From positions 1 through 44,007 of the forward strand of contig CAZJAX010000001.1 in the NCBI GenBank assembly GCA_964543965.1: 44,007 bases of DNA, written 5' to 3'. A program made the translations under genes and the position numbers. Below the pieces are notes generated by a model. That model saw only the letters and a list, made by a program, of their open reading frames with translations, was not told the origin of the DNA and did not search any database. Shown piece after piece: positions 13,155-32,019 of this stretch. Source of the DNA: an uncultured Planctomycetia bacterium (GTDB taxonomy: Bacteria > Omnitrophota > Gorgyraeia > 2-02-FULL-51-18). Each line of letters begins with the position of its first letter. Position 1 is the stretch's first letter.

Positions 13155-13270
13155 CATAAGTCATTTTATATTAGATACTTACATAGATCATTATAGGATT
13201 AATCCTTTGGGCAGCTATTGACGTCTAACATAGCGACAGGAACCCATAAGCTTCCAAAAAGGAGATTGCG

Positions 13271-13882
13271 ATGAAATTGATTCTGCACAAATCTTTGATC
13301 GGTCTGATAGTTTTTTCATTTGCTGCCAGCGACGTGCGCGCGGAAAAAGTAATGGACAAAGCCGAAGTGAAGGCACAGCTTGAAGCGATCGAAAGGCTGA
13401 AAACAGAGGATCCCGAAAAATATAAGGAAGTGATGAGGATCCGCAAGGAAAAATTAAAGGAGAAGATGGATGAGCTTAAGGTCAAGGATCCTGCAAAATA
13501 CAAGGAACTTCAGCAGCAGATGTCCGCTAAACGCCGCGAAGCGCTGGACAAGCTGAAGAAAGAGGAACCGACTAAGTATCGCCAGGTGATGGAATGGCAA
13601 ACACGCGAGTTGGAGCGCATCAAGTCGGAGGAGCCAGCTCGATATAAAGAGATCCTCAAGAAAAATCCGAAGCTCGCGGAAAATATCAAAAAACGCGAAG
13701 AGCTGGAGAAGCTTAAGGTGGAGAACCCCAAGAAATTCCAAGAACTCGCTGACGCCAAACTGCGTGAGCTGCAGGTCATGAGAGAGAAAGAGCCCGAGAA
13801 ATACAAGCAGCTGCTGGAAAACGTGCCGGGTCTCGAGCGCGGTATCCAGAACGCTGAGAACGCAAAAAAGAGCGGAAGATAA
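13271..13882 (+). CDS. Secreted K/E-rich helical repeat protein (six '[DEN]-P-x-[KR]-[YF]-[KRQ]-[EQ]-[VIL]' units)
   Basis: Signal peptide ...FAASDVRA. The repeats are EDPEKYKEVM, KDPAKYKELQ, EEPTKYRQVM, EEPARYKEIL, ENPKKFQELA and KEPEKYKQLL, spaced 23-30 aa apart. AAAGGAG ribosome-binding site. Confidence 0.75.
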   Translation: MKLILHKSLIGLIVFSFAASDVRAEKVMDKAEVKAQLEAIERLKTEDPEKYKEVMRIRKEKLKEKMDELKVKDPAKYKELQQQMSAKRREALDKLKKEEPTKYRQVMEWQTRELERIKSEEPARYKEILKKNPKLAENIKKREELEKLKVENPKKFQELADAKLRELQVMREKEPEKYKQLLENVPGLERGIQNAENAKKSGR

Positions 13883-13902
13883 TCGCATCATAGGAGTCGA
13901 TC

Positions 13903-14499
13903 ATAAAAGAAGCTCTTTCTAATGAAGCAGAGATCATCGAGCAAGCCCGCTCCGGCGGACTGAAAGCTTTCGGCGCGCTCGTGGAGATGCACCAGGAGCG
14001 CGCCGTCGCCCGCGCCTTTGCTTTGACCGGCAATTGGGAGGATGCGCGCGATCTGGCACAGGAAGCGTTCATCCGTGCTTATGAGAATCTGGACGGCTTC
14101 AAGGCGGAAAGCCGTTTCTACACCTGGTATTACAGGATCCTGTCAAACGTTTGTAAAGATCACCTGAGAAAAAAGAAAGTTCGAGCCGCCATTTCGTTTT
14201 TTACGGGCCGCGGCGATGAAGGGGAAGGGACAGCGGAGGAGAACATCGTCGACCGGTCCAAAAATGCCAAGGAGGCGCTTTTGGATAGGGAGCTCGGCCA
14301 AAATCTGTATAAAGCGGTATCGAGTCTCCCGTTTCGACAGAAGAATGCGTTTGTGCTTAGGTATATGGAGGACATGAGTCTCGAAGAGATCGGAGAGACC
14401 ATGCAGATTTCGACCGGCGCGGTAAAGGCTCACCTGTGGCAAGCGGTCAAGAAAATGAAAGATTTTCTCGGCTCATATGCCGGTACGGAGGGATGCTGA
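13903..14499 (+). CDS. ECF-type RNA polymerase sigma-70 family factor; start probably non-canonical
   Basis: Region 2 (DLAQEAFIRAYENLDGF, FYTWYYRILSN) and region 4 (FVLRYMEDMSLEEIGETMQISTGAVKAHL) are present. The conserved N-terminal helix EAEIIEQARSGGLKAFGALVE is encoded upstream of the first GTG (13981). The frame is open from 13894. The only plausible initiators are ATC 13900 and ATA 13903, downstream of AGGAG (13892-13896). Confidence 0.8.
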   Translation: MKEALSNEAEIIEQARSGGLKAFGALVEMHQERAVARAFALTGNWEDARDLAQEAFIRAYENLDGFKAESRFYTWYYRILSNVCKDHLRKKKVRAAISFFTGRGDEGEGTAEENIVDRSKNAKEALLDRELGQNLYKAVSSLPFRQKNAFVLRYMEDMSLEEIGETMQISTGAVKAHLWQAVKKMKDFLGSYAGTEGC

Positions 14500-14501
14500 A
14501 A

Positions 14502-14897
14502 ATGGATGATAAAATTTTCGATAAAATGGACCGGATGTTTTCTGCCCGTATGAAAAATGAAGCTCCGCACGTTCCCGGGGAGATACTGAATGGTTTCAGT
14601 CATTCCGTGGCTGAAAGGATACGTGAGCGGGAGAATCAGAAGCTGCAGTCGGCGCGCCAAAGTCCAGTGTTTCGGCCCCGCGTACTTGTGCCCGTATTCG
14701 CGGCGGTCATGCTTTTTTTCACGGTTATATTCCGGGTTCCTTCATTTTCCACAGACACCGGCATGAGAGCGATGGTGGCTCAGAGCGCTTTAGAAATTAG
14801 CGAGGAAATCACGGCTTTGTCAGCGATGGGAGCCTGGGGCGACGAGGACGACAACATGCTCGTCCCCGCCGAAATCGTTTTTGAGGATCTAGCTTAG
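14502..14897 (+). CDS. Putative anti-sigma factor (single-pass membrane protein)
   Basis: Starts 2 nt after the sigma stop (an alternative ATG at 14493 overlaps it). One TM (VLVPVFAAVMLFFTVIF). Acidic C-terminus. The position is typical of an ECF anti-sigma factor. Confidence 0.55.
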   Translation: MDDKIFDKMDRMFSARMKNEAPHVPGEILNGFSHSVAERIRERENQKLQSARQSPVFRPRVLVPVFAAVMLFFTVIFRVPSFSTDTGMRAMVAQSALEISEEITALSAMGAWGDEDDNMLVPAEIVFEDLA

Positions 14898-15517
14898 GCC
14901 GAAGTCTTGATCTGCGATGCTTGCGCCATGGCCTGCATTTCACCTTCGAGCGCAGGACGGATGACCGGCAGAGCTGAGCCGTCTTTCGCCAGATCGACCG
15001 CCTGACCCTTCTTGAGCTGGACCACTTTCCCTGATTTTTTATCCAATACGTCCACTTTCCCTTCACGGACCGCAAAGGTCGTCACAGGATTGGTCGGGGT
15101 GGCAGGCTGGACGCGGCCCCAGAACTGAGTGCCTCGCACCGTCGCGACAGCGGTCGGCGTTTCGACCTTGAACGTAGATCCCATATGAAGTTTCTTAAGG
15201 TTCATGATCGCGTTGCCGTTCTTGATCTGTACGTGCATGTCTGTTCTTGAAGCATTCACGATGGCAAATTCGCTGGTGGGCAATACGCGGCATCCGGCCA
15301 TTCCGTTGACGGAAAGATCGAGGGTGCTATTAGCCTCAGAAGTCACGACGATATCGCCGGTCCGCAGTTTCATACCCGGCTGCGCGCTCAGCTTCTCGAA
15401 ACCGCGCTGGATGTGAGGGTTTCCGACCATCGACTTCACGACCACTTGGTCTTCGGCGAATGACGGTGTCTGCAAGAGCGCTACGAATGACAGAACCAGC
15501 CAGAAAATCTTTTTCAT
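14894..15517 (-). CDS. Secreted FecR-domain protein
   Basis: Signal peptide MKKIFWLVLSFVALLQTPSFA. KLRTGDIVVTSEANSTLDL ... VETPTAVATVRGTQFW resembles the FecR (PF04773-like) beta-rich domain. Confidence 0.65.
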   Translation of the reverse strand: MKKIFWLVLSFVALLQTPSFAEDQVVVKSMVGNPHIQRGFEKLSAQPGMKLRTGDIVVTSEANSTLDLSVNGMAGCRVLPTSEFAIVNASRTDMHVQIKNGNAIMNLKKLHMGSTFKVETPTAVATVRGTQFWGRVQPATPTNPVTTFAVREGKVDVLDKKSGKVVQLKKGQAVDLAKDGSALPVIRPALEGEMQAMAQASQIKTSA

Positions 15518-15699
15518 CGGAATTCCTTCATTTTTAAAGTGCAGGATTTAGTTTTAATATACCAATTTAAAGTTCGGCTGTCACGAGTGTCAGGGGAACC
15601 TATACCTTTCTCTACGGCGGCGCCCTTCTTTTGGATTGCAGCCGGATTTGTATTTTATTAATACATCAGGCATACTTCGTCCTTATACTTAAGGACCCG

Positions 15700-18600
15700 A
15701 TGAAACCTAACCCTATGATCCGCCCAACGGCTTTGATGCTGCTTTTGAGCGTATTTCTGAGCGAGCTGTCTTTTGCGGCTCCCTCTGAAAAGCCGGCCGC
15801 CGCCGTGTCATTGCGGCCGCTGGAAAGGCTCGTCCGCGACCCTCAAGAATTCCAAGCCCCTCTGGATTTCTGCACTTTGAAAGAAGTCTCCAAGGGTTCC
15901 TCGGATAAGCTGATCATCCATATCCAGGACGCTCACGCCAATCTTTCCGGACAGCAGAATCTCGCGCGCACTTTAGAGAGCATTATCCGGCAGTACGGGA
16001 TCTCGCTTGTGCTTGTGGAAGGCGGCTCACCTGCGGAAGGCTCTCTCGAACCTCTTAAAAAAATAGGACCTGCGGGATCCGCCGAGCGGGCCGCCAAGAG
16101 ACTGCTGGCCGAAGGAAGGCTCTCCGGCGAAGAATACCTGCAGCTGACTTCGCGTCACCGCATGACGCTGCGCGGCGTCGAAAACATGACGCTTTACCGG
16201 AACAGCGTAGAAAGCTATGCGCGGCTGGCGGAAAAGAGGCAAAAGGCGCTTGATTATCTCAAAACCGTACGTTTCGCGGTCGGTAAGCTCAAGGCAAAGT
16301 TTTATCCTGCAAGCCTTTTGGATTACGAAAATAGAAAAAAGGCCGAGGGCGGTTCCGGGATCGGCCGCTTGGTAGAATTTGCCGATGAGAACAGCATAGA
16401 TCTCGGAGAATTTCAGAACATTGCGGAACTAAGACCGCTTTTAGCCTCGGAAAAGACCATCGATTTCTCTCTAGCCAACCTCGAACAGGCGGCGCTTCTG
16501 GATCAGCTGCACCGGCGCGGCGCAGGAGAGGATATCCGCGGACAGCTTGAAAAGTTCAATCAGGCAAAAAATTCAAAAGTCTCTCAGTATACCCTCTTTC
16601 GAAATATCTTAAATATCGCCGATAAGAAGGGTGTGTCTCTCGCGGGTTATCCGAATCTCCTGAAATACGGCGCATATCTTAAGAAGTTTCAGGAGATCGA
16701 CCTCGATCTGCTTTTAGAGGAAAGCGAAAATGCCGAAGATCTCGTATACCGCTCAGCGCTCCGCTCACAGGATGCGCTCATGATCCGCGCCATCGACCGC
16801 TACACAGCGCTCCTGGAAACTGCTTACCGTATCCAGATGAGCAGTAAGGATTTCAATTTTTTTCGTGCCAACGAACCCGATTTTTCCACGGCAGGATATC
16901 TGGCATTCATCAACCGTAAGCTCGCTGAGCAGGATTATTTTTCGGACCTTCTCGTTTATGACCCGTGCATCGAGGAAGGCGAAAAGGCTCTGGCCGATTT
17001 TTATGCGTCGGTCGACCGAAGAGATGCCGCCTTCCTTGAGAATGCAAAAGGGATCCTGAAAGAAGAGGGCCGGAGCGCGGCCGTGCTGATCACGGGCGGC
17101 TATCACAGCCAGCACCTAAAAAAACTTTTCAGGGATAATGATTATTCTTACATTGTCCTCGCGCCCATCGTTACATCCGAGACCAACCAGCAAAAATACG
17201 AAGATCTGCTTCTCGGAGAAAAAAAGGGATCGAAAAGGATCGAAGCGGGTGAAAGCGATATCATGAGTTTCCGCCATAACGATGGTGTCCGAACTCTGCG
17301 CGCCGCTTCCAGCGGACCGCGATGGATCTCCCGCTATGCGGGAGTTGCCGGTGTCCCCGCATCGGACGCTGCCGTACGCCGCGTACGCTCGGATTTCGCC
17401 AAGAGAGTGTGGGTTACTGAGGGAAGTCCGTTCCGAACCGTTACCAAAGACAGGCGCGCGGTCTCCGCTTCTAAGCCCGAGGATGCCGGGAAAGGAGATC
17501 TATTCAAGGAGAGTGATGGTCATTTCCCCGATCTGGAAAGGCCGGTAATATTTTACGGCAGCGGTCCGGAGTCAAACCCTCTCTTTAGATTCACCGGCAT
17601 TAAGTCCGGCTATCCGGATAAATTTTTAACCAACGGATTTTTTAGTCAGAACGGTCCGCTTTTCGCACAATGGCGTTTCGAAACCCTGCGATCGAGTTTT
17701 GCAAAAATGGGTGCGCGATTTGCCGCCGAACAGACTGCGCGCCCCGCCGCCGGCTGGCCCCTGGCCGCCAGCCCGGAAACGGTCGGAGCTGTGAGGATGA
17801 TCCTTGAAACCCCTGCAGTGGCCGAAGGTTTGAAAAAAAAGGAGTTTAACTACCCGCTTTATCAGCGGGAAATAGAAAAGTTTAAAAATTATCATAACGT
17901 AGACATCGAACAAACGGCTGCGCTGGTTGCGATCCTGACGCTCTATATCGCAAGAATAGGGAATGACCCTAACAATTATCAAGCCGTCATCGGAGAATTG
18001 GGTAAATCAGAAGGTCCTTTAAAGGTTCTTTTTTTGCGGGCTCACGGTTTTGCGTTCGGTGCGTGGGCTCCATTCATGAAACCCAATATCTATACGAATC
18101 AATATGAGGGCCAGGAAGTCCGTATCCTGCAGACAGCCGCATCTGCGATATCAGCCGATCTTGCTCAGGCATCCCTGCCGGCCGCGTATCTGCAGTCCTG
18201 GGCTCCGGGCAAGACCATGCGGGATAGGGATAAGGTTCTTATTTCGCTCAATGATTGGATTTTTCCTGCGGGAGTCATCATAAGCAACAGAGAGATTAAC
18301 CGCGGATTTTATAGAGACGCAGAGCCAAGAGTGCGTGTTGCGGCGAACTCGGCCGACGTCACTGTTAAAAAGCGGGGGAGTCTGACCGTCCGGAAGATCA
18401 AAGTATACCTGGGTTACGGCGCTCCCGAACCGCCAGGCCACTTGGCGCTTCATCTGCTAGGAACCAACATCATTGCTTCCAGAATGGAAAATCTGATCAA
18501 TCACGCGCGAGATATGCACAGATTAACTTATGCGCCCATACCCGATCTGTCCCTTTACCGTATGCGGTATCCATCCGTTGCAGATGAGCTGATGCGCTTC

Positions 18601-21600
18601 GATCAGGTGCATAGAAAAGCGGTGTCGAGGGAGCTCTCCGCGCTGTCTCAGGATCAGACGACACAGCTGCTGATAGAGATGCAGGACGACCACGAGGAAT
18701 ATCACGTTTATGCGGTGCAGCTCGGCATCGAGCAGAAGCTGCTTCATGATAAAGATTCGGAGCTTTTTCCTCAGCTCGGTGAGCTGGCAAAGGGCAGAGC
18801 GCCTTACTTAACGCTGGCAGGACTCAGCATTGTCAGCGCTTACGGCGCTCTTAAACCAGAAGGCACGGTCATCGAAAACAGGCGTTCTTTAGATTCGATA
18901 TACAACGGCGCTCTGCGTTTGGGTTATTTAAAAGACGGCGCTAAACCTATATTCTCAGAAAGAGAGATCAACCCAGGCACAGTGATCCTTATGAACGCGG
19001 AGCAGCTCGATGCGCTTATTTCTTTATCCAAGGAAGAACTCAAAGAGCTTGCCACCAAGCTATTAAAAGAATTGTTCGGTATCGATGCGCTGCCGGACGA
19101 CTCGGAAGTGATCGCCAGGCCTTTACAGGAGATGATCTCAGCTCCAGGACCCGTCTATGCAGTGACGCCTTCGCTGCAGGGAAATCAACCCATACCTTTG
19201 GACGAAAAGCAGGGTTCGCGTCTGGCGGAAGACGATAGCGCATTTATGAAGTCGCTGCGCGGCCTGCTGGCCGACGGAAACTTTATCGCGGCGGTTCTCC
19301 GCAGCGGGTCGGAAAGAAAGCGGTTCCTGAGCTGGGTAAGCCAGAACGCCGAACGGCAAGGAACCTGGAGCGATATCGTCGAGATCGGCCGCCTGCGGAG
19401 TTTACTCGGAAAAGAGGATGAACCCCGCGCCGCGCTTTTGGACGATATCCGGACGACCGCGGCGATGCACACTTTTGCGGTGTTTACATCGCAAGGCGGC
19501 GCCCGTTATGAAATGAGAACCAGCGACAATTTCGACCGCGGTGAGCGAAGGCTTCTCTATCCGATGATCGAACAGTTCATCGCCTCGCATCCAGCTTCGG
19601 TCCGCATAGAGGATATCGGCATCTCGACAGGCGCAAAACCGGTCCAGCTGGCACGATTTCTGGATTCGAAGTCCCTGGCATCGAAGGTCTTTTTTACCGG
19701 AACCGACTATCTGACGGAGCCGCGTCTTGTAAGGGTCGGCGCAGGTCGTGAGACGGTGGAGGGACTTTTCAACGCATCAGGACAGCTGGTCTGGACGCGT
19801 TTTTGGTCGCCCGAGCACCGGCATTTCATTTCCCGCCGTGTCAAAACACCTCAAGACAGCAAATTTACATCGGCCGAGCAGCTTAAGCTCGAATACGGCG
19901 CCGGAAGATACGTGATCCTCCCGCGTTATCTCCCGGCCTATCTCGAAGAATGCCGCCGCCTGCTTTCTGCCGCGGATTTCATCGAGGAAGATGTAACAAA
20001 AGCCTCGCCGGACAGAACTGCGGATCTGGTGCTCGTAAACAATGTCTATATCCATCTGGATAGCGGCGAGAGGCGTGCCGCTCTGCTGAGTATTTTCAAT
20101 CGGTTGAATCCGGCCGGCGGACGAGCCGTTTTTATGGAGTCCGGCAGGCGCAGTATCCGCAAAGGCGGCGTGGAAAGCGGTGTCGCCGTGTATGAAATAT
20201 ATGAACGCAAGGGGTCGACCGTGACCCGCATCAAGTCTCACTCCAGGGCGGAAGAACTGGCTGAACTTATCAGCAAAGACATGCTGCTGTCCCATCATCG
20301 TGACAGCTGGGCGCCTCGCGCGGATCTCGCGGGCCGCGACGCGGCGTTCGATGCCGAATTGGACGAGCTGCTTCCCCGAGGATGGAACCTTCCTGGAAGG
20401 GACATCATGCCTGAAGTCATCGAGCTCGACGATCCAGAGATCAGGGAAATATCGCCTGAAGAAGTAAAGTTGAAGACCCGCGCCGACCAGGCGACGGAGA
20501 TGACCCGCGAGACCATCGCGCGGGAAGGCACCCGCTCATGGACCAAGAGCTGGATCGAAACGATCGAGGGCTGGATCGAGATATATGAAAGCCGGCCCGT
20601 TGCAAGTCCGAATACCGCAGAATATCTGGCGCTGTTCCAGGACCGGCTAGCGGTCCTGCGTGCCCATAGGACGGAGCTTGAAAGACGCGCTGCCCAAATA
20701 CCTGCTGACGAACCCTCTCTCTTTATTGCGCTCAACACGAGTCCCGGGGGACGCCAGCTGACGGCCGAAGAACTCAACAAGATCCTTGGGCTGTTCAGAG
20801 ACAGTCCGGTGATCGCTGACACCGGATCGATAAAGCTTCGTATGAGTTTTGAGGGGATCCCTCCGGTTACCGACGCTCAGCTTGATCTGATCAGCGCGTT
20901 TCTGACCGCGCAAAAGAACGGCGCCCGCTTGGCGGAGCGTTTCATGACGCTCGATTCGGGGAGCCCCGAGAACCAGAAGTACATTCCTACTATCATCAGT
21001 TTCGTCAGCCAGTTTCTGAAGGTCGCCGAAAAGGACAAGGACGACCGAACCGGAGAATTGATCTATCACCTGCATGTCACCGACAGTGAAGCGGCGGATC
21101 TGAGCGGGATGATGGCCAAGATCAAAAATATGAACACGGTCGACGCCGGCATCTATCTGATGATGCAGGCATACCGCAGTCTTTATTTCGACGTGCTTAA
21201 AGGTAAAGACGACATGATGAATACCGAAACACGAGCGGTGCTCGAAGATTCTCCTGGAGCCTACGGCACCGACCCCGAGCGTCCCGTGCTTTTCGACCTG
21301 ACCCCCGAGCGTCAGATCGTCGCCGTGTACCTGCCTGTCGAGGGCAACACGTTCGTGAAGCTCGAGATCGTACGCGGAACCGGGTCTGACGAGCGCACAA
21401 TGGACGCGGAGACCACCAAACTTTCTCCTCTGTTAAACGCTAAAGGCCAGCCGATGCATGTGTTCCGAGCGCGCAGCTCCATCGTAAACGGCGTTACGCT
21501 TGGCGCGCATGAGACAGAAGGTGCTCGGTTCGCGAAGGCCGACCTGGAAGCCGAAAGATTTTTGAATGACCCGGCCAATTCTTACGTGAGAAGCCTTTAT

Positions 21601-24285
21601 ACCGAATATAAATCCAGAGGCGTTCCAGGGATAGACAATTGGGTGTATCGGGCGGCGGCCGCGGCAACGGAAGGACAGCGTCACGAAGTCGTTGGAGAGC
21701 TGATCTCGGCGAAGCGCATCGAGAAGGAATATCCGGATGCAGAGCTCATCGGGATCGGTCTCGGGATAGGCGCTTATGAAGCCGATATCGTGTTTGAGGT
21801 CAAGGGAACTAAGCCCCACCTCTTGGTCATCGAGTCCAAATACGACCGCACGCCTCATTTCCGCTCTACTTTCGAACGAACGACCAACTATCAGATGAAG
21901 CCTTTGGCCGAAAAACTCATCATGGTCGAAGACCTTCTGGGTCTTCCCGTGCGCTACGCCGTGATGGGCGCGGGCCCGAAGATCCTGATCTTGGAATCCG
22001 GCCGCGATTTTGATCGCTTTGAGAGCGCCGGCAGAACTGATGTCAATTTTACCTATGAAGATCAGCAGGCCGGCCGTCGTCCCGGAAAAACAGTGCTGAG
22101 GACCATCCCCGTCGATCTTATCCTTCTGAACGTCGATGCCAAGAAGCTGCCGGATGCTGAAACACCCCAAGTGCGCATCTATGATTCGACTTCCATCCGC
22201 GCGGACTTCTTCAGAACCATCGGAGGCCATTTCATACCTTCGGCGGGACAGCGCCGTCTAGTGCGTCCTGAGATCCTTCCGGCCGTTTTGGAAGAGGCGT
22301 TCCAGAGAGAGATCGAGATCGAAAGGGAATGGACGAGAATAGAGCCGTATTTGGAGCGTCTGGTGCGTTCCGTACGCCAGCCCGGCGCGGTCAAAGGCCT
22401 CGTCGAAGGCGACATCGAGCTTTTCCGGGAAGGCGCACGGTTTTTCCTCACCGAAGGTCTCAGGCGCGGCCGCACCTTCGATGACCTGCGGCACGTGATC
22501 AGCGACAGACTGAGCGCTAAAGGCGGCGTAAAGAACATATATGAACCCTTCAAAAAAGCCGGAGAGAGAAACCGTCCCGCTGAAGGCGCGCGGCTCGCTG
22601 CGGAGGACAAAGAGCTTTTTGTGAAGAAACTTGAGTTTACTCCCGGACTGCATACGCTGCTTATCGATAAAAGGCGCGAGAGCGTGCGCCAGGCGATCAG
22701 AGAGGCAAAATTGAAGTGGGCTAAAGAACAGCATTCGGCGCAGCCCGATCCGGTTCTTCTGGACCAGCTGAAAAATGTGGAAGTGAACGATCCTGAGTTG
22801 GGCAACATCAAGATCGGCATCAGCGGCGAAGAGTCTCTCTTGAACGAACGGCTGGATTTCCTCCTGCAGGAACTCTTGATGAACGCATTCGACGCGTACG
22901 CGCGCACCGGAGGGCGAGGCGGCGAGATCGAGCTGCGCGTCGCCGAGGCCGGCGGCGAGATCCGCATCGAGATATCCGACTCTGGAATAGGCGTCTCAAA
23001 CATCACGGACAAACCGGGAGAATTTAAAGTCACCGCCAATCCTTCCGTCAAAGACGCTTATTTGACCGGCGGAGCGGGCGCAGGCCTCCTTTGGTCTAAG
23101 GTGGTCGCTCAGGCCCGCAACGGTGATCTCACCGTTTTTTCTCCCGGCCGCGGAGATTTTAAAACGACGGTCAGGATGTCTTTTCCCAAAGACGAGATCA
23201 GCGCGGATTATATTTCTTCCGCTGCGAGGCTCGCGTCGGCTCAAGACCCGCAGCGGCTGCGCCGGATATATGCCATCGACGAGCCCTTACCGGACGAAGC
23301 GGTCTCAAAGTTTTCCGATGCGGCGCCGATCATGGATCTCATCGCGCTGATCGCGGCTCATCATGAAAATTCAAATCGGGGAAATATTCCCGTTCAGGCC
23401 GCTTCGACGGCGTTTGCCGGCCTCGAAATACTGCCTGAGACTGCCGGCGGAATTCCCGTGCGCCTCGCAGACCCGCGAGCCGCCGGAAAATATCTTGATA
23501 CGGTCGTCGTGACGAGGGAAGCGGCGCGCCTGGCGGCCTCACGCCTGGCCGCTTCCAGGGCTCTCGATGTCAAACTGCCCGAGCTTTGGCATGAAAACCA
23601 GCCTGCGCGTGAAGCGGCTGCCGATTACAAGAGCCGCGACAGCCGGACAGCTCAGCTTCTGCGCCAGCTCGTCAAAAATCTGAAAGCCACCCAGCATGTG
23701 ATCCTATTCATGAGCGTCGAAGGCCAGGATGAAGAACTTTTAAAGCAGGAGATCGCCGAGCTGAGATCCGAACTCGAAGCGCTGAATCAGAAAAGACAGA
23801 CGGGACGTCTTGAGGTCTCCATCCGCCTGGCCGACGCGGCCGGCACCCAGATCGAGGGTGCTTTGTGGCAGACCGGGGGTTTCGACGAAACGAAAGCAGA
23901 GAAGAAGGCTTTCTCGGGAGCTCTTCGCCAATCTCTCATCGACCGTGCCGTCAAGACGCAGTCCGCTTATCTGCCTGCCGATGAGGCTCATTACGACCGT
24001 GAGAAAGGGTATTACAACGCCATCCCATACAAACCCGATATGCGCGCGGCTATCGCGGCCGTCGTGGATGAAGAGCTCGCTGCCCGCATGCTGAGCGTCC
24101 TGACGGGTCAGGATATGAGCCTGCCGGGCAATATGACGCTGATCCGAGAACCTCACAGATACGCCGGACCCGTCACCACGGATACTTACCGCGCCAAACA
24201 GCTTATCGTGCGCGCCTTGGCCCGCATTTCCGATGAACTTCGCCGGGATTATCTCTCTCTCAGAGCCTCTGCGATCGCGGCATAA
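15700..24285 (+). CDS. Giant multi-module protein (about 2,861 aa) with an N-terminal signal/anchor sequence; function unknown
   Basis: One uninterrupted ORF. The track starts at TTG 15631, but ATG 15700 yields MKPNPMIRPTALMLLLSVFLSELSFAAP (signal-like). It contains Tiki/ChaN-like, SAM-MTase-like, PD-(D/E)xK-like and GHKL-like motif sets and a recurring G-[AS]-R-[LF]-A motif. All antisense ORFs within it are shadows. Confidence 0.85.
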   Translation: MKPNPMIRPTALMLLLSVFLSELSFAAPSEKPAAAVSLRPLERLVRDPQEFQAPLDFCTLKEVSKGSSDKLIIHIQDAHANLSGQQNLARTLESIIRQYGISLVLVEGGSPAEGSLEPLKKIGPAGSAERAAKRLLAEGRLSGEEYLQLTSRHRMTLRGVENMTLYRNSVESYARLAEKRQKALDYLKTVRFAVGKLKAKFYPASLLDYENRKKAEGGSGIGRLVEFADENSIDLGEFQNIAELRPLLASEKTIDFSLANLEQAALLDQLHRRGAGEDIRGQLEKFNQAKNSKVSQYTLFRNILNIADKKGVSLAGYPNLLKYGAYLKKFQEIDLDLLLEESENAEDLVYRSALRSQDALMIRAIDRYTALLETAYRIQMSSKDFNFFRANEPDFSTAGYLAFINRKLAEQDYFSDLLVYDPCIEEGEKALADFYASVDRRDAAFLENAKGILKEEGRSAAVLITGGYHSQHLKKLFRDNDYSYIVLAPIVTSETNQQKYEDLLLGEKKGSKRIEAGESDIMSFRHNDGVRTLRAASSGPRWISRYAGVAGVPASDAAVRRVRSDFAKRVWVTEGSPFRTVTKDRRAVSASKPEDAGKGDLFKESDGHFPDLERPVIFYGSGPESNPLFRFTGIKSGYPDKFLTNGFFSQNGPLFAQWRFETLRSSFAKMGARFAAEQTARPAAGWPLAASPETVGAVRMILETPAVAEGLKKKEFNYPLYQREIEKFKNYHNVDIEQTAALVAILTLYIARIGNDPNNYQAVIGELGKSEGPLKVLFLRAHGFAFGAWAPFMKPNIYTNQYEGQEVRILQTAASAISADLAQASLPAAYLQSWAPGKTMRDRDKVLISLNDWIFPAGVIISNREINRGFYRDAEPRVRVAANSADVTVKKRGSLTVRKIKVYLGYGAPEPPGHLALHLLGTNIIASRMENLINHARDMHRLTYAPIPDLSLYRMRYPSVADELMRFDQVHRKAVSRELSALSQDQTTQLLIEMQDDHEEYHVYAVQLGIEQKLLHDKDSELFPQLGELAKGRAPYLTLAGLSIVSAYGALKPEGTVIENRRSLDSIYNGALRLGYLKDGAKPIFSEREINPGTVILMNAEQLDALISLSKEELKELATKLLKELFGIDALPDDSEVIARPLQEMISAPGPVYAVTPSLQGNQPIPLDEKQGSRLAEDDSAFMKSLRGLLADGNFIAAVLRSGSERKRFLSWVSQNAERQGTWSDIVEIGRLRSLLGKEDEPRAALLDDIRTTAAMHTFAVFTSQGGARYEMRTSDNFDRGERRLLYPMIEQFIASHPASVRIEDIGISTGAKPVQLARFLDSKSLASKVFFTGTDYLTEPRLVRVGAGRETVEGLFNASGQLVWTRFWSPEHRHFISRRVKTPQDSKFTSAEQLKLEYGAGRYVILPRYLPAYLEECRRLLSAADFIEEDVTKASPDRTADLVLVNNVYIHLDSGERRAALLSIFNRLNPAGGRAVFMESGRRSIRKGGVESGVAVYEIYERKGSTVTRIKSHSRAEELAELISKDMLLSHHRDSWAPRADLAGRDAAFDAELDELLPRGWNLPGRDIMPEVIELDDPEIREISPEEVKLKTRADQATEMTRETIAREGTRSWTKSWIETIEGWIEIYESRPVASPNTAEYLALFQDRLAVLRAHRTELERRAAQIPADEPSLFIALNTSPGGRQLTAEELNKILGLFRDSPVIADTGSIKLRMSFEGIPPVTDAQLDLISAFLTAQKNGARLAERFMTLDSGSPENQKYIPTIISFVSQFLKVAEKDKDDRTGELIYHLHVTDSEAADLSGMMAKIKNMNTVDAGIYLMMQAYRSLYFDVLKGKDDMMNTETRAVLEDSPGAYGTDPERPVLFDLTPERQIVAVYLPVEGNTFVKLEIVRGTGSDERTMDAETTKLSPLLNAKGQPMHVFRARSSIVNGVTLGAHETEGARFAKADLEAERFLNDPANSYVRSLYTEYKSRGVPGIDNWVYRAAAAATEGQRHEVVGELISAKRIEKEYPDAELIGIGLGIGAYEADIVFEVKGTKPHLLVIESKYDRTPHFRSTFERTTNYQMKPLAEKLIMVEDLLGLPVRYAVMGAGPKILILESGRDFDRFESAGRTDVNFTYEDQQAGRRPGKTVLRTIPVDLILLNVDAKKLPDAETPQVRIYDSTSIRADFFRTIGGHFIPSAGQRRLVRPEILPAVLEEAFQREIEIEREWTRIEPYLERLVRSVRQPGAVKGLVEGDIELFREGARFFLTEGLRRGRTFDDLRHVISDRLSAKGGVKNIYEPFKKAGERNRPAEGARLAAEDKELFVKKLEFTPGLHTLLIDKRRESVRQAIREAKLKWAKEQHSAQPDPVLLDQLKNVEVNDPELGNIKIGISGEESLLNERLDFLLQELLMNAFDAYARTGGRGGEIELRVAEAGGEIRIEISDSGIGVSNITDKPGEFKVTANPSVKDAYLTGGAGAGLLWSKVVAQARNGDLTVFSPGRGDFKTTVRMSFPKDEISADYISSAARLASAQDPQRLRRIYAIDEPLPDEAVSKFSDAAPIMDLIALIAAHHENSNRGNIPVQAASTAFAGLEILPETAGGIPVRLADPRAAGKYLDTVVVTREAARLAASRLAASRALDVKLPELWHENQPAREAAADYKSRDSRTAQLLRQLVKNLKATQHVILFMSVEGQDEELLKQEIAELRSELEALNQKRQTGRLEVSIRLADAAGTQIEGALWQTGGFDETKAEKKAFSGALRQSLIDRAVKTQSAYLPADEAHYDREKGYYNAIPYKPDMRAAIAAVVDEELAARMLSVLTGQDMSLPGNMTLIREPHRYAGPVTTDTYRAKQLIVRALARISDELRRDYLSLRASAIAA

Positions 24286-24343
24286 ACTCTCTAAGACGCA
24301 GCAACTTTATTTAAGCATTTATAACCCTTTAATATTCAAATAC

Positions 24344-24372
24344 TTACAATTGATTTTTCATGTTAATAGAAT
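24344..24372 (+). promoter_or_regulatory. Sigma-70-like promoter candidate, TTACAA-17-TAGAAT
   Basis: Lies in the AT-rich 161-nt gap upstream of the REC-GAF-HK gene. The spacer is exactly 17 nt. Confidence 0.35.
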
Positions 24373-24446
24373 GAATGATTAATTATGCTTATTGAGACCC
24401 TCTAGAGCCTTAGGTAACCTTGATAGTAAGGTATCCAGGAGGGTTC

Positions 24447-26120
24447 ATGCAGCGAAGGTTGGAAGATCCAAAGCCCAAAAAAAACCAGATCCACATTCTC
24501 ATCATCGAAGACGACAACGAGTTAAGAACGTTTCTATCGTCTGAGCTCACCTTGCGCGGTTATCACACCCAGACCGCAGCCGACGGCCTGGAGGCCATGG
24601 AAAAAGTCCGCCGGCATCCCTTTAATCTGGTCTTAAGCGACTTGCGCATGCCGCGCATGGACGGTATGGCCGTGCTTAAAGCTTTGAAAGAGATCGATCC
24701 TCAGATCGACGTGATCCTCATGAGCGGGCAGGGCGATATCGAGATCGCCGTGAAAGCGATCAAGCTCGGCGCCTTCGATTTTCTGGAAAAGCCCGTTTCG
24801 ATGGAAAAGCTTCTGCTTTTGATCGACAAGGCCCTCGAAAAAAGCGAGATCCGTATGCTGATGGCGCTCTACAGCGCCAGCCGCATGCTCTTTTCGTCTT
24901 CGCGTCTCGAGGAGCTGCTTTCGATGACGATGAATATGCTGTATTCGGTGTTCAAAGCCGATGAAGGGTCGTTCATGATTTATGAAGAAGAGCGCTTGCG
25001 GATTCTTACCAGCCGCGGAATTCCCGAAGAGATCGTCAAAACAGCCTCTGTCAAAATGGGTGAGCGCGTATCCGGCTACGCTCTACAGCATAAAAAACCG
25101 CTGCTTCTGATCGAGGGCCGCGAAAAATATTCGGAACTGGGAAAGATCGAAACCCGTACTCACATCCAGTCGTCGATGGTCATCCCGGTCTACTGCAACG
25201 ACACTCCGGTCGGCGTGCTCAATCTGAGCCGCACCGTTCACCGGGAGAATTTCACTTACAACGATCTGCGCAACGCCACGATCTTCGCTTCCCAGCTCGG
25301 ACAGACCGTGCACAACTCGCGGCTCGGCCACAGCCTTGACGAGAAAATGAAAGAGCTTAAAGAGGCCTATCGATTGCTCGAAGAGCGTAAGGCACTCCTG
25401 GAAGAAAAGGAAAAACTCGCCAAAGTCGGCTGCATGATCGCCGGCATGGTGCATGAGGTCAACAACCCTCTGACGGCCGTTCTTGGCCACGCCGATCTGC
25501 TTCTTTCACAGGATGACCTGGCGCCGGAAGTCCGCGAGACGCTGCAGATCATTTTGCGCCAGGCGATGGCCTGCCGCGACCTCGTGCAGGACCTTCTGCT
25601 GTATTCAAGACGGCGCAAGCCCGAGCTGCGCGACGTCGATCTGCCGGGGCTTATTCATGACGTCCTGAATTGCGCTTCTCCCGAGATCCTGCGCAGCGGC
25701 GTGCGGGTGAGATTTTGCTATCCCAAAAACTTTCAGACCGTGCAGGCCGATCCTCAGCAGCTGGCGCAGGTGTTCCTAAACCTCGTGAAAAATTCCTGTC
25801 AGGCGCTCGAGACGCGTCCCGGCAAACGCCATTTGGCCATCAAGATCCGGCCAAACGCCGATGCAGCTTCCGCCGATATCCTTGTGATGGACAACGGCTC
25901 CGGCATCCCCGCAGATCTATCCGAGAAGATATTCGATCCGTTTTTCACGACGAAACCGTCCGGTAAAGGGACGGGACTCGGCCTGAGCATGGTCCGTGAG
26001 ATCGTGCGCGAGCACGGCGGTCGCATCGACGTCCGGCCGTCGCATCTTCCGGGCGCGGTTTTCTCGATCACACTTCCTTATACCCAGACGACCCTCTCCG
26101 GCCTGCCGTCCCGAGCCTAG
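24447..26120 (+). CDS. Hybrid two-component protein: receiver (REC), GAF and histidine kinase (HisKA + HATPase_c)
   Basis: REC: ILIIEDD...LVLSDLRMPRMDG...K. The middle region is GAF-like. H-box MVHEVNNPLTAV, N-box NLVKNSCQA, G1 DNGSGIP, G2 GKGTGLGLS. AGGAGG lies 4-5 nt before ATG 24447. Confidence 0.88.
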   Translation: MQRRLEDPKPKKNQIHILIIEDDNELRTFLSSELTLRGYHTQTAADGLEAMEKVRRHPFNLVLSDLRMPRMDGMAVLKALKEIDPQIDVILMSGQGDIEIAVKAIKLGAFDFLEKPVSMEKLLLLIDKALEKSEIRMLMALYSASRMLFSSSRLEELLSMTMNMLYSVFKADEGSFMIYEEERLRILTSRGIPEEIVKTASVKMGERVSGYALQHKKPLLLIEGREKYSELGKIETRTHIQSSMVIPVYCNDTPVGVLNLSRTVHRENFTYNDLRNATIFASQLGQTVHNSRLGHSLDEKMKELKEAYRLLEERKALLEEKEKLAKVGCMIAGMVHEVNNPLTAVLGHADLLLSQDDLAPEVRETLQIILRQAMACRDLVQDLLLYSRRRKPELRDVDLPGLIHDVLNCASPEILRSGVRVRFCYPKNFQTVQADPQQLAQVFLNLVKNSCQALETRPGKRHLAIKIRPNADAASADILVMDNGSGIPADLSEKIFDPFFTTKPSGKGTGLGLSMVREIVREHGGRIDVRPSHLPGAVFSITLPYTQTTLSGLPSRA

Positions 26121-26322: not shown

Positions 26323-26351
26323 AAACTGCGGCGTCCGCCGCAGTTTTTTTA
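26323..26351 (+). terminator. Rho-independent terminator
   Basis: Stem CTGCGGC/GCCGCAG with loop GTCC, followed by T7. Confidence 0.8.
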
Positions 26352-27606: not shown

Positions 27607-27635
27607 TTGATTTTGGCTCCTAAATGGCGTACTAT
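27607..27635 (+). promoter_or_regulatory. Sigma-70-like promoter TTGATT-17-TACTAT, 7 nt upstream of ATG 27643 (leaderless-type)
   Basis: The hexamers and the exact 17-nt spacer can be read directly. There is no Shine-Dalgarno sequence between the -10 and the ATG. Confidence 0.45.
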
Positions 27636-27642
27636 GAGATTT

Positions 27643-28413
27643 ATGAACATGAAAACTTCCGTTTTGACTCCCGCCGAAAAGGCCGATTTCTCCCGTGACG
27701 GTTTCCTGGTCGTGCGGGGTTTGTATGATGCCCGCGAAATGGCCGACCTGTCTGCCTGGATCGATGAATTGTCGGCGCGGCCTCCGGCCGTCGGCAAGCT
27801 CATGGCTTATTATGAGGACAGCCGGCTGGAAAGCGGCAAGAAAATCCTGTCCCGCATTGAAAAATTCGTGGATTATCATGACGGCATGAAGTCTCTGGTC
27901 TACGGTGAGAAAATGACCGGGCGGGTTTCTGAGCTTTTGGGCGACCGCGCGCTGCTATTCAAGGAAAAGGTCAATTTCAAGATGCCCGGCGGCGCAGGCT
28001 TCGAAGCGCATCAGGATATCCAGCCCGGATGGGATGCGTATGCGCCGTATTTTATTTCTGTTCTTGTGACGGTGGACCCGAGCACGATCGAGAACGGATG
28101 CCTCGAACTTTCGGCGGGTCATCACAAAAGGGGGCTGATCGGCCAGAAGTGGAAGCCGCTGGCGGGTGACGAGCTCCAGGGCATCGAGTTTACGCCGTAT
28201 CCGATGGAACCGGGGGATGTCGCATTTTTCGACTGTTTCGTACCGCATCAGTCCAAGCCCAACCTTACATCCAAGCGCCGCCGCAACCTGTATCTGACCT
28301 ACAACCGCGCAAGCGACGGAGATTTCCGGGAAAAATATTTCGCCGACAAACGCAAAAGCTTCCCTCCGGACTTCGAACGCGAGCCTGGCAAAGAGTACGT
28401 CTTTCGCGTATGA
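27643..28413 (+). CDS. Phytanoyl-CoA dioxygenase (PhyH) family Fe(II)/2-oxoglutarate dioxygenase
   Basis: MNMKTSVLTPAEKADFSRDGFLVVRGL is a PhyH-type N-terminus. The HQD facial-triad motif (EAHQDIQPGW) and a distal H (FVPHQS) are present. The track ORF begins at 27607, which falls inside the promoter. Confidence 0.75.
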   Translation: MNMKTSVLTPAEKADFSRDGFLVVRGLYDAREMADLSAWIDELSARPPAVGKLMAYYEDSRLESGKKILSRIEKFVDYHDGMKSLVYGEKMTGRVSELLGDRALLFKEKVNFKMPGGAGFEAHQDIQPGWDAYAPYFISVLVTVDPSTIENGCLELSAGHHKRGLIGQKWKPLAGDELQGIEFTPYPMEPGDVAFFDCFVPHQSKPNLTSKRRRNLYLTYNRASDGDFREKYFADKRKSFPPDFEREPGKEYVFRV

Positions 28414-30228: not shown

Positions 30229-32019
30229 CTATGATTTAAGGTGATCTGAGATCTTCTGCAAGTCCTCTTCAAAATCCATCTCTGTCCAGAAATACCCCTG
30301 AGTAGGCACCCAGCCGATCTTTCTTTTCTGTAAGAGCTTGCAGTAGGCGTCTTCGTATTCGACAAGGTCGTTTTTACGGCGGGCAAAATCATTCAATATC
30401 TTCCTGAGTTCTATCGCGTCAGTCTTTGAAAATTTCACGATGCCGGTGGCTTCGCCGATGGGTTTGAGGCCGGGGACTTTGGGCTTCGTGATGGCAAGCG
30501 CACGGCCGTTTTTGACGCGGAGCATCATTTCTTCGCCGTTTTCTTTCGCGTGCTCGTCCAGCAGGAACACGCTTCCCCAACCCTCGAGCAGGCGGCCTAG
30601 CATCGGAGCCGGGAAGAAGACATCGGCGTCCATGACGATGACTTCGCTATTCAGGTATTTTCCGGCAGTGTGGAGCGAGAGGACGCTGCCTTTCCGGTAC
30701 TCGCGGTTGGTCACGAAGCGGATCTTGAGGCCGGCGCCGTGTTTTTTGGCGGCTTGGATGATCTGATTTTTCTCGTGGCCGACGACGATGACCGCTTCTT
30801 TGATATTATTTTCACGGAAGGCGTCGAGGTAGCGCTTTAAAAGTGTTTCCCCGCTGTTGCCGAGAGGGATGAGGCACTTGGGAAGCGCTTTGGTGCGTGC
30901 GCCGAAACGTTTGCCCACACCGGCGGCCAGCACGATGGCTTTGGGAGCAGACTTAGGCTTGCCGGCAAGCTGCCGGTAGACCGCGGCGAAGCGGCGCAGA
31001 TCATTCTCGGAGACCTCGCCGAGGCATGAGACGCGGAAGATGGTCTTTTTCAGCGCGGATTGGCCTGCATAGATCACGAAACCCTTCTTTTTCATCTCAT
31101 CATGAAGTCTTTCGTAGGAAAGCCCTTCGGGCAGCCTCGCCGACAGGAGGACGTGCGAACGGTATTTTTTTTCTACGAGAAAACGCGCCCCGCTCGATAA
31201 AAGACCTTCTTCGACAAGAGCCATTTTACGGGCGTAAGTTTCGATGCGGTGTTTTACACCTTGTTTAAGAAGCTCATCGAGCGCCCGGTCAAACGCGTAG
31301 TAGAGCTGAACGGCGGGCGTGAAAGGCGGCTCGTATGTGCGCGCGGATTCGAGTGAGGTGCGCAGGTCGAGATAGACGCTTTTCTTGTCTTTGGGAAGTT
31401 GCGCTGCCTCTGTTTTGGAAACGAACACAAATGATACGCCGGGAAACGCGTGCAGGCACTTGCCCGAGGAGCCGGCGAGGAAATCGACGTCCTTCAGGTC
31501 GATGATTTCGGCGCCAAGAGAGCTTACGGCGTCGACGAGAACAGCTTTTTTATATTTTTTGGCAAGTCGCGCGATTGCGGCCAGGGGATTGAGCATCCCC
31601 GTCGAAGTCTCGTGATGCACCATCGCGACGGCGGTGATGGAGCGGTCGGATCTGAGAATATTCTCGATGGCGCCGAGCTCTGGAAACTGTGTGAGCGCTG
31701 CCGCCAGGACGCGGTGGGTGCGGCCGTGAGCTTTGAGGATCGCGGCCATACGCTCGCCATAGACGCCGTTGGACAGCACGAGCGTCTTGCCGCCGTAGGA
31801 TGAGAGCATCGCTTCGACGGCGGAGGTGCCTGACCCGGTGAAGAGAGCGGCTTCGTGCGATCTTTGGATGCCGAACGCTTTCAAGAGCTTTGAGCGGACA
31901 TCGCGGAATAGCCTGGAGAACTCAGGCTCTCGGTGACAGAGGTCAGGTCCTAAAAGCGCACGCCGCACACCTTCGGTGACGTTGACGGGGCCGGGGTTTA
32001 AGAGGACCCAGCGTTTCAT
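30229..32019 (-). CDS. 2-aminoethylphosphonate:pyruvate aminotransferase (class V, PhnW/AEPT-like) fused to a C-terminal LicC/PntC-like nucleotidyltransferase
   Basis: N-terminus: LLNPGPVNVTEGVRRALLGPDLCHREPEF and the PLP lysine context SSGKCLHAFPGVSFV. C-terminus: AIVLAAGVGKRFGARTKALPKCLIPLG (NTase signature). Confidence 0.8.
   Translation of the reverse strand: MKRWVLLNPGPVNVTEGVRRALLGPDLCHREPEFSRLFRDVRSKLLKAFGIQRSHEAALFTGSGTSAVEAMLSSYGGKTLVLSNGVYGERMAAILKAHGRTHRVLAAALTQFPELGAIENILRSDRSITAVAMVHHETSTGMLNPLAAIARLAKKYKKAVLVDAVSSLGAEIIDLKDVDFLAGSSGKCLHAFPGVSFVFVSKTEAAQLPKDKKSVYLDLRTSLESARTYEPPFTPAVQLYYAFDRALDELLKQGVKHRIETYARKMALVEEGLLSSGARFLVEKKYRSHVLLSARLPEGLSYERLHDEMKKKGFVIYAGQSALKKTIFRVSCLGEVSENDLRRFAAVYRQLAGKPKSAPKAIVLAAGVGKRFGARTKALPKCLIPLGNSGETLLKRYLDAFRENNIKEAVIVVGHEKNQIIQAAKKHGAGLKIRFVTNREYRKGSVLSLHTAGKYLNSEVIVMDADVFFPAPMLGRLLEGWGSVFLLDEHAKENGEEMMLRVKNGRALAITKPKVPGLKPIGEATGIVKFSKTDAIELRKILNDFARRKNDLVEYEDAYCKLLQKRKIGWVPTQGYFWTEMDFEEDLQKISDHLKS

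Follow-up and report, generated by a model that had tools for sequence, protein, structure and literature searches.

A probably self-contained extracytoplasmic function sigma-factor operon of envelope-stress type beside lineage-specific FecR-domain, giant and kinase genes in an Omnitrophota genome

The window analysed here, 44,007 nucleotides (nt) of DNA from an uncultured Omnitrophota bacterium, is the entire contig CAZJAX010000001.1 of a 1.89-Mb assembly that is 92% complete (GCA_964543965.1; hereafter G000). Six genes lie next to one another within it: those for a secreted K/E-rich repeat protein (KErep), an extracytoplasmic function (ECF) sigma factor, a small single-pass membrane protein, a secreted FecR-domain protein, a giant protein and a hybrid REC-GAF histidine kinase. 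Open reading frame listing, translation and Pfam/NCBIfam searches agree on all six. The initial annotation read these genes as one regulatory unit, in which ECF and FecR signalling would control the giant gene. The first three do belong together, as a conserved ECF trio, whereas the other three are lineage-specific and carry no ECF motif. We therefore consider it likely that the region is a mosaic, in which a self-contained, autoregulated ECF operon of envelope-stress type (13199-14897) stands beside three lineage-specific neighbours outside its predicted regulon. The operon has the following features:

13199-13230, + strand: predicted ECF-type autoregulatory promoter, -35 TTAATCCTTT, 13-nt gap, -10 CGTCTAACA, 40 nt 5' of the first gene
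13271-13882, + strand: KErep, the first gene of the operon, with a signal peptide and six repeats
13900-14499, + strand: ECF sigma factor, Pfam Sigma70_r2 and r4_2, start probably ATC 13900 or ATA 13903
14493-14897, + strand: small single-pass membrane protein, encoded where an anti-sigma factor is expected; overlaps the sigma stop if read from ATG 14493, and has an invariant Met at 14502

The sigma factor consists of regions 2 and 4 only (Pfam Sigma70_r2, 8.9e-17; Sigma70_r4_2, 9.3e-14) and matches TIGR02937 (sigma70-ECF) at 106.6 bits, against a cut-off of 42.9 bits. Its best NCBIfam matches are SigW/RpoE-like and not FecI-like, all of them far below the cut-offs of those families. The frame is open from 13894, and its first canonical start is GTG 13981. 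Both in the window (13894-13983) and in its nearest relative, a genome of the same genus (G004), a conserved N-terminal helix is encoded 5' of any ATG, GTG or TTG. Because this helix precedes GTG 13981, the gene likely starts at ATC 13900 or ATA 13903, behind AGGAG. The ATC-ATA pair behind AGGAG is also kept in G004, and its conservation suggests a non-canonical start codon for the sigma gene.

On either side of the sigma gene lie two proteins of no recognised family. The mature part of KErep is 20% K and 18% E and contains six repeats of the helical DP-x-KYKE type ([DEN]P-x-[KR]-[YF]-[KRQ]-[EQ]); a Pfam search placed it in no family. The small membrane protein has a conserved cytoplasmic head, a single hydrophobic transmembrane helix and a periplasmic motif, EEIAAL-ELGAWTEEDE, and its start (14493 or 14502) overlaps or abuts the sigma stop. 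Pfam, NCBIfam and PDB profile searches with it returned no anti-sigma domain and no match. Its family comprises about 100 clusters, all named hypothetical and none with a Pfam match, and the organism names attached to its homologues are exclusively those of Omnitrophota metagenome-assembled genomes. The single-pass topology given in the initial annotation holds; the name anti-sigma factor that came with it derives from position and topology only, and the protein is a putative anti-sigma factor.

Orthologues of the operon occur at about 22 related loci, apparently from Omnitrophota, and gene order was followed at the sigma loci of 15 other genera in the order and on metagenome contigs. At most of these loci, the sigma gene stands between KErep and the small membrane protein. 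KErep orthologues lie 5' of it at nearly every locus with upstream sequence, most of them extended by an RRED-x-RD repeat and a tail rich in Gly; the small membrane protein is kept 3' of it, translationally coupled, at most orthologous loci examined. Further 5', the usual context of the operon is w12447, a FIST protein and a pterin-4a-carbinolamine dehydratase.

The operon is also marked by its promoter. From the 220 nt 5' of KErep in ten other loci we derived the motif TTAAACCTTT-N12/13-CGTCTAA, which is found 5' of the operon at every orthologous locus with upstream sequence. A two-block matrix trained on those ten loci, with the window excluded from training, scores the window site at 29.3 and recovers eight further loci outside the training set at 23-34 bits. 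Only two sites in the G000 genome reach 24 or more, namely that of the operon itself and one on another contig (C24:6204-6235; 27.4), and the maximum scores in ten simulated genomes were 18-25. As an IUPAC pattern, the motif is present at 38 places across 41 genomes, and the reversed control at 3.

The site on C24 lies 75 nt 5' of a gene for a secreted protein of 221 aa that combines an EF-hand pair with NPPGP-type repeats (C24:6204-6975), whose orthologue in a second genus (G015:C114) likewise bears the motif. Most of the extra sites are 3-72 nt 5' of small secreted-protein genes. Among the products of the genes behind these sites are Gly-rich LLGAGVGAIS proteins, the EF-hand orthologue, charged-repeat proteins, DUF6515 and two LTXXQ (CpxP/Spy) proteins. 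The predicted gene set of the motif has the profile of an envelope-stress regulon.

In its layout the operon resembles the RpoE-RseA-RseB system of E. coli and the SigW-RsiW system of B. subtilis, with a two-domain sigma factor, a translationally coupled single-pass protein encoded after it, a periplasmic protein as a further product of the operon, autoregulation from an 'AAC ... CGTC' type of promoter and a regulon of small secreted proteins, which in relatives include LTXXQ proteins of the CpxP/Spy type. It differs from both in that no anti-sigma domain, zinc-binding motif, Pfam match or PDB match could be detected in the membrane partner, that the periplasmic protein is encoded first and consists of K/E-rich helical repeats of no family, and that the sigma start is apparently non-canonical. 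The ECF operon is ordinary but cleanly defined. As to how it may work, the small membrane protein probably tethers the sigma factor to the inner membrane until a periplasmic signal, in which the co-transcribed KErep may play a part, frees it. The free sigma factor would then read promoters of the two-block kind; the motif itself is evident in the alignments, and that this sigma factor recognises it is our proposal. Its predicted targets in G000 would be its own operon and the EF-hand protein gene on C24, and in relatives the same motif would drive the small secreted proteins listed above.

Downstream of the operon, the remaining three genes come with these features:

14894-15517, - strand: secreted FecR-domain protein, 207 aa, with a signal peptide and Pfam FecR at 8e-9 (aa 58-155)
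15556-15584, - strand: sigma-70-like promoter of the FecR gene, GTGACA, 17 nt, TATATT with TG extension; a 10/12 consensus match, start site predicted
15648-15676, + strand: candidate housekeeping promoter of the giant gene, TTGTAT, 17 nt, CATACT; 8/12, found by eye
15700-24285, + strand: giant gene, 2861 aa, with a signal peptide, an N-terminal module (N-module) of about 520 aa and HATPase_c near the C-terminus
24286-24446, no strand: AT-rich gap of 161 nt, 32% GC, with a weak sigma-70-like 9/12 match at 24343-24372
24447-26120, + strand: cytoplasmic hybrid kinase, Pfam REC, GAF, HisKA and HATPase_c, starting at ATG 24447
26323-26346, + strand: terminator-like hairpin after the kinase gene, a 10-bp stem followed by a T run

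Several structural details of the initial annotation are correct. The FecR gene converges on the gene of the small membrane protein with a 4-nt stop overlap (TTAG, 14894-14897), and the giant gene starts at ATG 15700, behind AAGGA, which sets the divergent gap between it and the FecR gene at 15518-15699 (182 nt, 41% GC). The AT-rich gap before the kinase gene, with its promoter candidate, was likewise described as we find it. The suggested search for a shared ECF-type -35/-10 upstream of the operon and of the giant gene succeeds for the region 5' of 13271 and fails for the divergent gap: over 15480-15740, on both strands, the best score of the ECF matrix is 5.5, compared with 23-34 for true sites. 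The idea that the giant gene is a target of FecR/ECF signalling fails this comparison, one of the two that the initial annotation set as refuting it. A relaxed reading of the gap was also considered and rejected: 15518-15699 contains no 'AAC ... CGTC' pair at 15-17 nt spacing, and a GGAACC at about 15596 is followed by CGGC and is unconserved in G004. Both hexamers of the FecR promoter are conserved in G004, and the candidate promoter of the giant gene falls in the longest block conserved with that genome. It is probable that the giant gene is transcribed from a promoter of its own.

The FecR domain is genuine, and the protein that carries it begins with a cleavable signal peptide. We found in it no cytoplasmic anti-sigma domain and no second hydrophobic segment or membrane helix, and it would be a soluble periplasmic protein expressed from its own sigma-70-like promoter. 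In this it is like the stand-alone secreted FecR-domain proteins of Leptospira, Lsa19 and LipL45, which have a signal peptide followed by a FecR domain, a length of about 200 aa and no anti-sigma part. It matches the NCBIfam Lsa19 family at 2e-31 over residues 55-204 (109 bits, far below the 250-bit cut-off). Unlike Lsa19 and LipL45, it has no lipobox cysteine, and an adhesin role cannot be inferred for it.

Eleven other genera have both the sigma operon and an orthologue of the FecR-domain protein (39-54% identity), and in none of them are the two linked: on a single G019 contig they lie 140 kb from each other, and elsewhere they are on separate contigs. The neighbours of these orthologues are housekeeping genes, among them those for phosphoenolpyruvate carboxylase and a copper ATPase and the orthologues of window genes 27607, 33778 and 35817, and no motif scoring 20 or more was found at the FecR orthologue loci. 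G000 itself has 8 FecR-domain loci and 3 ECF sigma genes; of the FecR loci outside the window, seven in all, none is on a contig with an ECF sigma gene. On contig C67 (2-1807), the orthologue of the FIST gene that precedes the operon in relatives (65% identity) has moved beside another FecR-domain gene. In two genera (L027, G023:C19; L030, G013:C10), the FecR orthologue adjoins orthologues of window 27607-28413 and of the nucleotidyltransferase part of 30229-32019, both of which are parts of a phosphonate cluster downstream in the window. Given this adjacency, the giant gene and the kinase gene may be insertions that separated once-neighbouring genes.

The giant gene is one of about 17 paralogues in the genome. 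Its N-module matches about 16 other contigs of G000 and 34 of the 40 relatives compared, where it opens frames as long as 14048 aa (giant-family matches across genomes are taken from those listed, beyond which there are 305 further matches). For its middle and C-terminal parts, an orthologue was found only in G004. In that orthologue (L074; G004:C50), compared with window 19200-24285, the internal modules are reordered: a block matching window residues ~1730-1960 precedes one matching residues ~1170-1520. The genome is like those described for Omnitrophota giant genes (doi 10.1101/2023.11.21.568195; doi 10.64898/2026.06.07.730766) in being small and having many very long open reading frames, which open with a signal peptide and contain methyltransferase-like and HATPase_c modules; the relatives examined here have genomes of 1-2.7 Mb and open frames of up to 14048 aa. 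The kinase would be a cytoplasmic sensor transcribed from the AT-rich gap, where the ECF matrix gives a noise-level 14.5 (genome-wide, 29 hits score 14 or more). It lies 3' of a giant orthologue only in G004, and its relatives at 34-44% identity, from four other genera, lie on contigs without a giant-family match among the matches listed.

Conservation of the gene order in relatives was the other comparison that the initial annotation had named for a six-gene unit. The full order was found only in G004, where it is spread over four short contigs, with amino-acid identities of 74% for KErep, 77% for the sigma factor, 52% for the small protein, 82% for the FecR-domain protein, 66% for the giant N-module and 83% for the kinase; this genome is too close to the window to be informative on synteny. 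Four of five same-genus genomes, including the 97%-complete G003, have neither the operon nor the FecR orthologue. A reading of the block as an insertion, by same-genus comparison, was set aside: four of the five genomes also lack the flanking w12447, and no empty site was found.

A mosaic with a self-contained operon is, in our view, the likely account of the region, and several observations weigh against it. The putative anti-sigma factor has no homology support. Across genomes, presence of the sigma operon is correlated with that of the FecR orthologue (Fisher p = 3e-4 overall, 0.003 within the family), a result that we set aside because the genomes lacking both are smaller and related. Giant-family genes lie directly 3' of the operon in 5 of about 16 genera, the window's own and 4 others, and belong to three paralogue types; since giant-family starts make up about 1% of genes, 0.1-0.2 such placements would be expected in that many genera. 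On the + strand, 14897-15700 contains no predicted intrinsic terminator. In one relative (G018:C2), a site scoring 31 lies 25 nt 5' of a gene for a 386-aa secreted FecR-domain paralogue with a KErep-like tail, and a 1417-aa giant-family gene follows 77 nt further on.

In G000, a different contig (C12:7486-12628) carries a DEAD-box helicase gene and then two gene pairs, each encoding a FecR-domain protein and a secreted protein of about 360 aa. The second FecR gene, the genome's best match (39%) to the motif-driven FecR paralogue of G018, is preceded at 17 nt by a weak ECF-like motif (score 15.6, with a spacer one base short).

The downstream giants raise the possibility that the sigma factor controls the giant gene by read-through from its promoter at 13230, past the stop of the putative anti-sigma gene, antisense over the FecR gene and into the giant gene, which in relatives follows the operon directly. 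With no + strand terminator predicted over 14897-15700, such transcription could occur, and the corresponding gaps of G045 and G042 likewise showed none. In G013, G015, G042, G045, G046 and the metagenome locus L171, the operon is followed on the same strand by a giant-family gene, 108-700 nt beyond the small membrane protein. Those of G013, G045, G046, G042 and L171 are of one type (33-51% identical in the N-module), that of G015 is a second (23%), and the giant shared by the window and G004 is a third (24-28%); the three types are non-orthologous and 23-28% identical to each other. Taken as three independent placements, they have a Poisson probability of about 1e-4 to 1e-3. Several points tell the other way. 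In the window's genus the giant gene is 803 nt 3' of the operon, with the FecR-domain gene wedged between, so that read-through would have to cross a whole convergent gene. A DEAD-box helicase gene is at least as common as a 3' neighbour of the operon (about 9-10 loci), and the ECF motif is absent from all of the gaps that separate the operon from a downstream giant. In G013, a 10/12 sigma-70-like promoter lies 140 nt 5' of the giant gene, and a 13-bp hairpin follows the operon. Giants may also simply tend to insert or recombine at the 3' site of the operon. Altogether, we regard control by read-through as unlikely. The G013 hairpin itself (L042 9137-9166), between operon and giant gene, is a perfect palindrome flanked by A and T runs, and looks like a two-way terminator.

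These residual hints keep a looser link between sigma factor and giants alive, without rescuing the six-gene unit. In this Omnitrophota family, the envelope-stress sigma factor could be genetically tied to the giant-protein family, given that giants recur at the 3' end of the operon and that one FecR/giant pair has a full-strength promoter. The sigma factor would then sense or buffer the burden of giant export, and would act in the window by read-through across the FecR gene. This is a tentative idea with a rather small chance of being right.

A second alternative leaves the ECF operon aside and takes the FecR-domain and giant proteins as a functional pair, co-regulated from the 182-nt region, with the FecR-domain protein as periplasmic partner or sensor. 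The divergent layout and the promoter blocks are conserved in G004; a FecR-domain gene lies 0.1-2.7 kb 5' of a giant-family gene in G018:C2, G003:C1 and G027:C2; and other FecR paralogues adjoin genes for large haemagglutinin-type secreted proteins. Such adjacency is seen in about four lineages, compared with one or two expected by chance, a by-eye count among the matches listed that is not significant. Only one of the eight FecR loci in G000 lies beside any of its roughly 17 giant-family genes, the closest relatives of the N-module in six other genomes have housekeeping genes upstream, and the neighbours of the true FecR orthologues vary. We think a dedicated pair distinctly unlikely.

The arrangement also brings to mind FecI-FecR-FecA of E. 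coli, and Fox and Pup of Pseudomonas, where ECF sigma and FecR-domain genes stand side by side near a gene for a large envelope protein. Cell-surface signalling of that type, in which the FecR domain would sense an envelope signal, release the sigma factor and so switch on the giant gene, has in its favour a genuine FecR domain and an adjacency confined to G000 and G004, but it is contradicted on four defining features and we judge it highly improbable: the FecR-domain protein here is soluble, with a cleavable signal peptide and without a cytoplasmic sigma-binding part, anti-sigma domain or membrane helix, and its gene is convergent with the sigma operon, not co-transcribed; the sigma factor, SigW/RpoE-like in its best matches, already has a dedicated membrane partner conserved across the family; the window encodes no TonB-dependent transducer or Plug-domain receptor, the two Plug-domain genes of the genome being on C29 and C33; and the linkage is unconserved, with the FecR orthologue apart from the operon in 11 genera, and the putative target has no matching ECF promoter 5' of it.

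That a FecR domain, an ECF sigma factor and a giant gene are neighbours here does not make them a signalling system, and an attractive reading of the locus is thereby corrected. What the mosaic reading offers instead is a regulatory handle in an almost uncultured phylum, with a sharply defined motif, a small predicted secreted regulon and a membrane-partner family without known relatives. The main texts of the Omnitrophota giant-gene papers (West-Roberts et al. 2023, doi 10.1101/2023.11.21.568195; 2026 preprint, doi 10.64898/2026.06.07.730766) contain neither 'sigma' nor 'FecR', and giants behind an ECF operon are not described there. The repeated occurrence of giants behind this operon provides a testable lead on how Omnitrophota express and cope with giant proteins.

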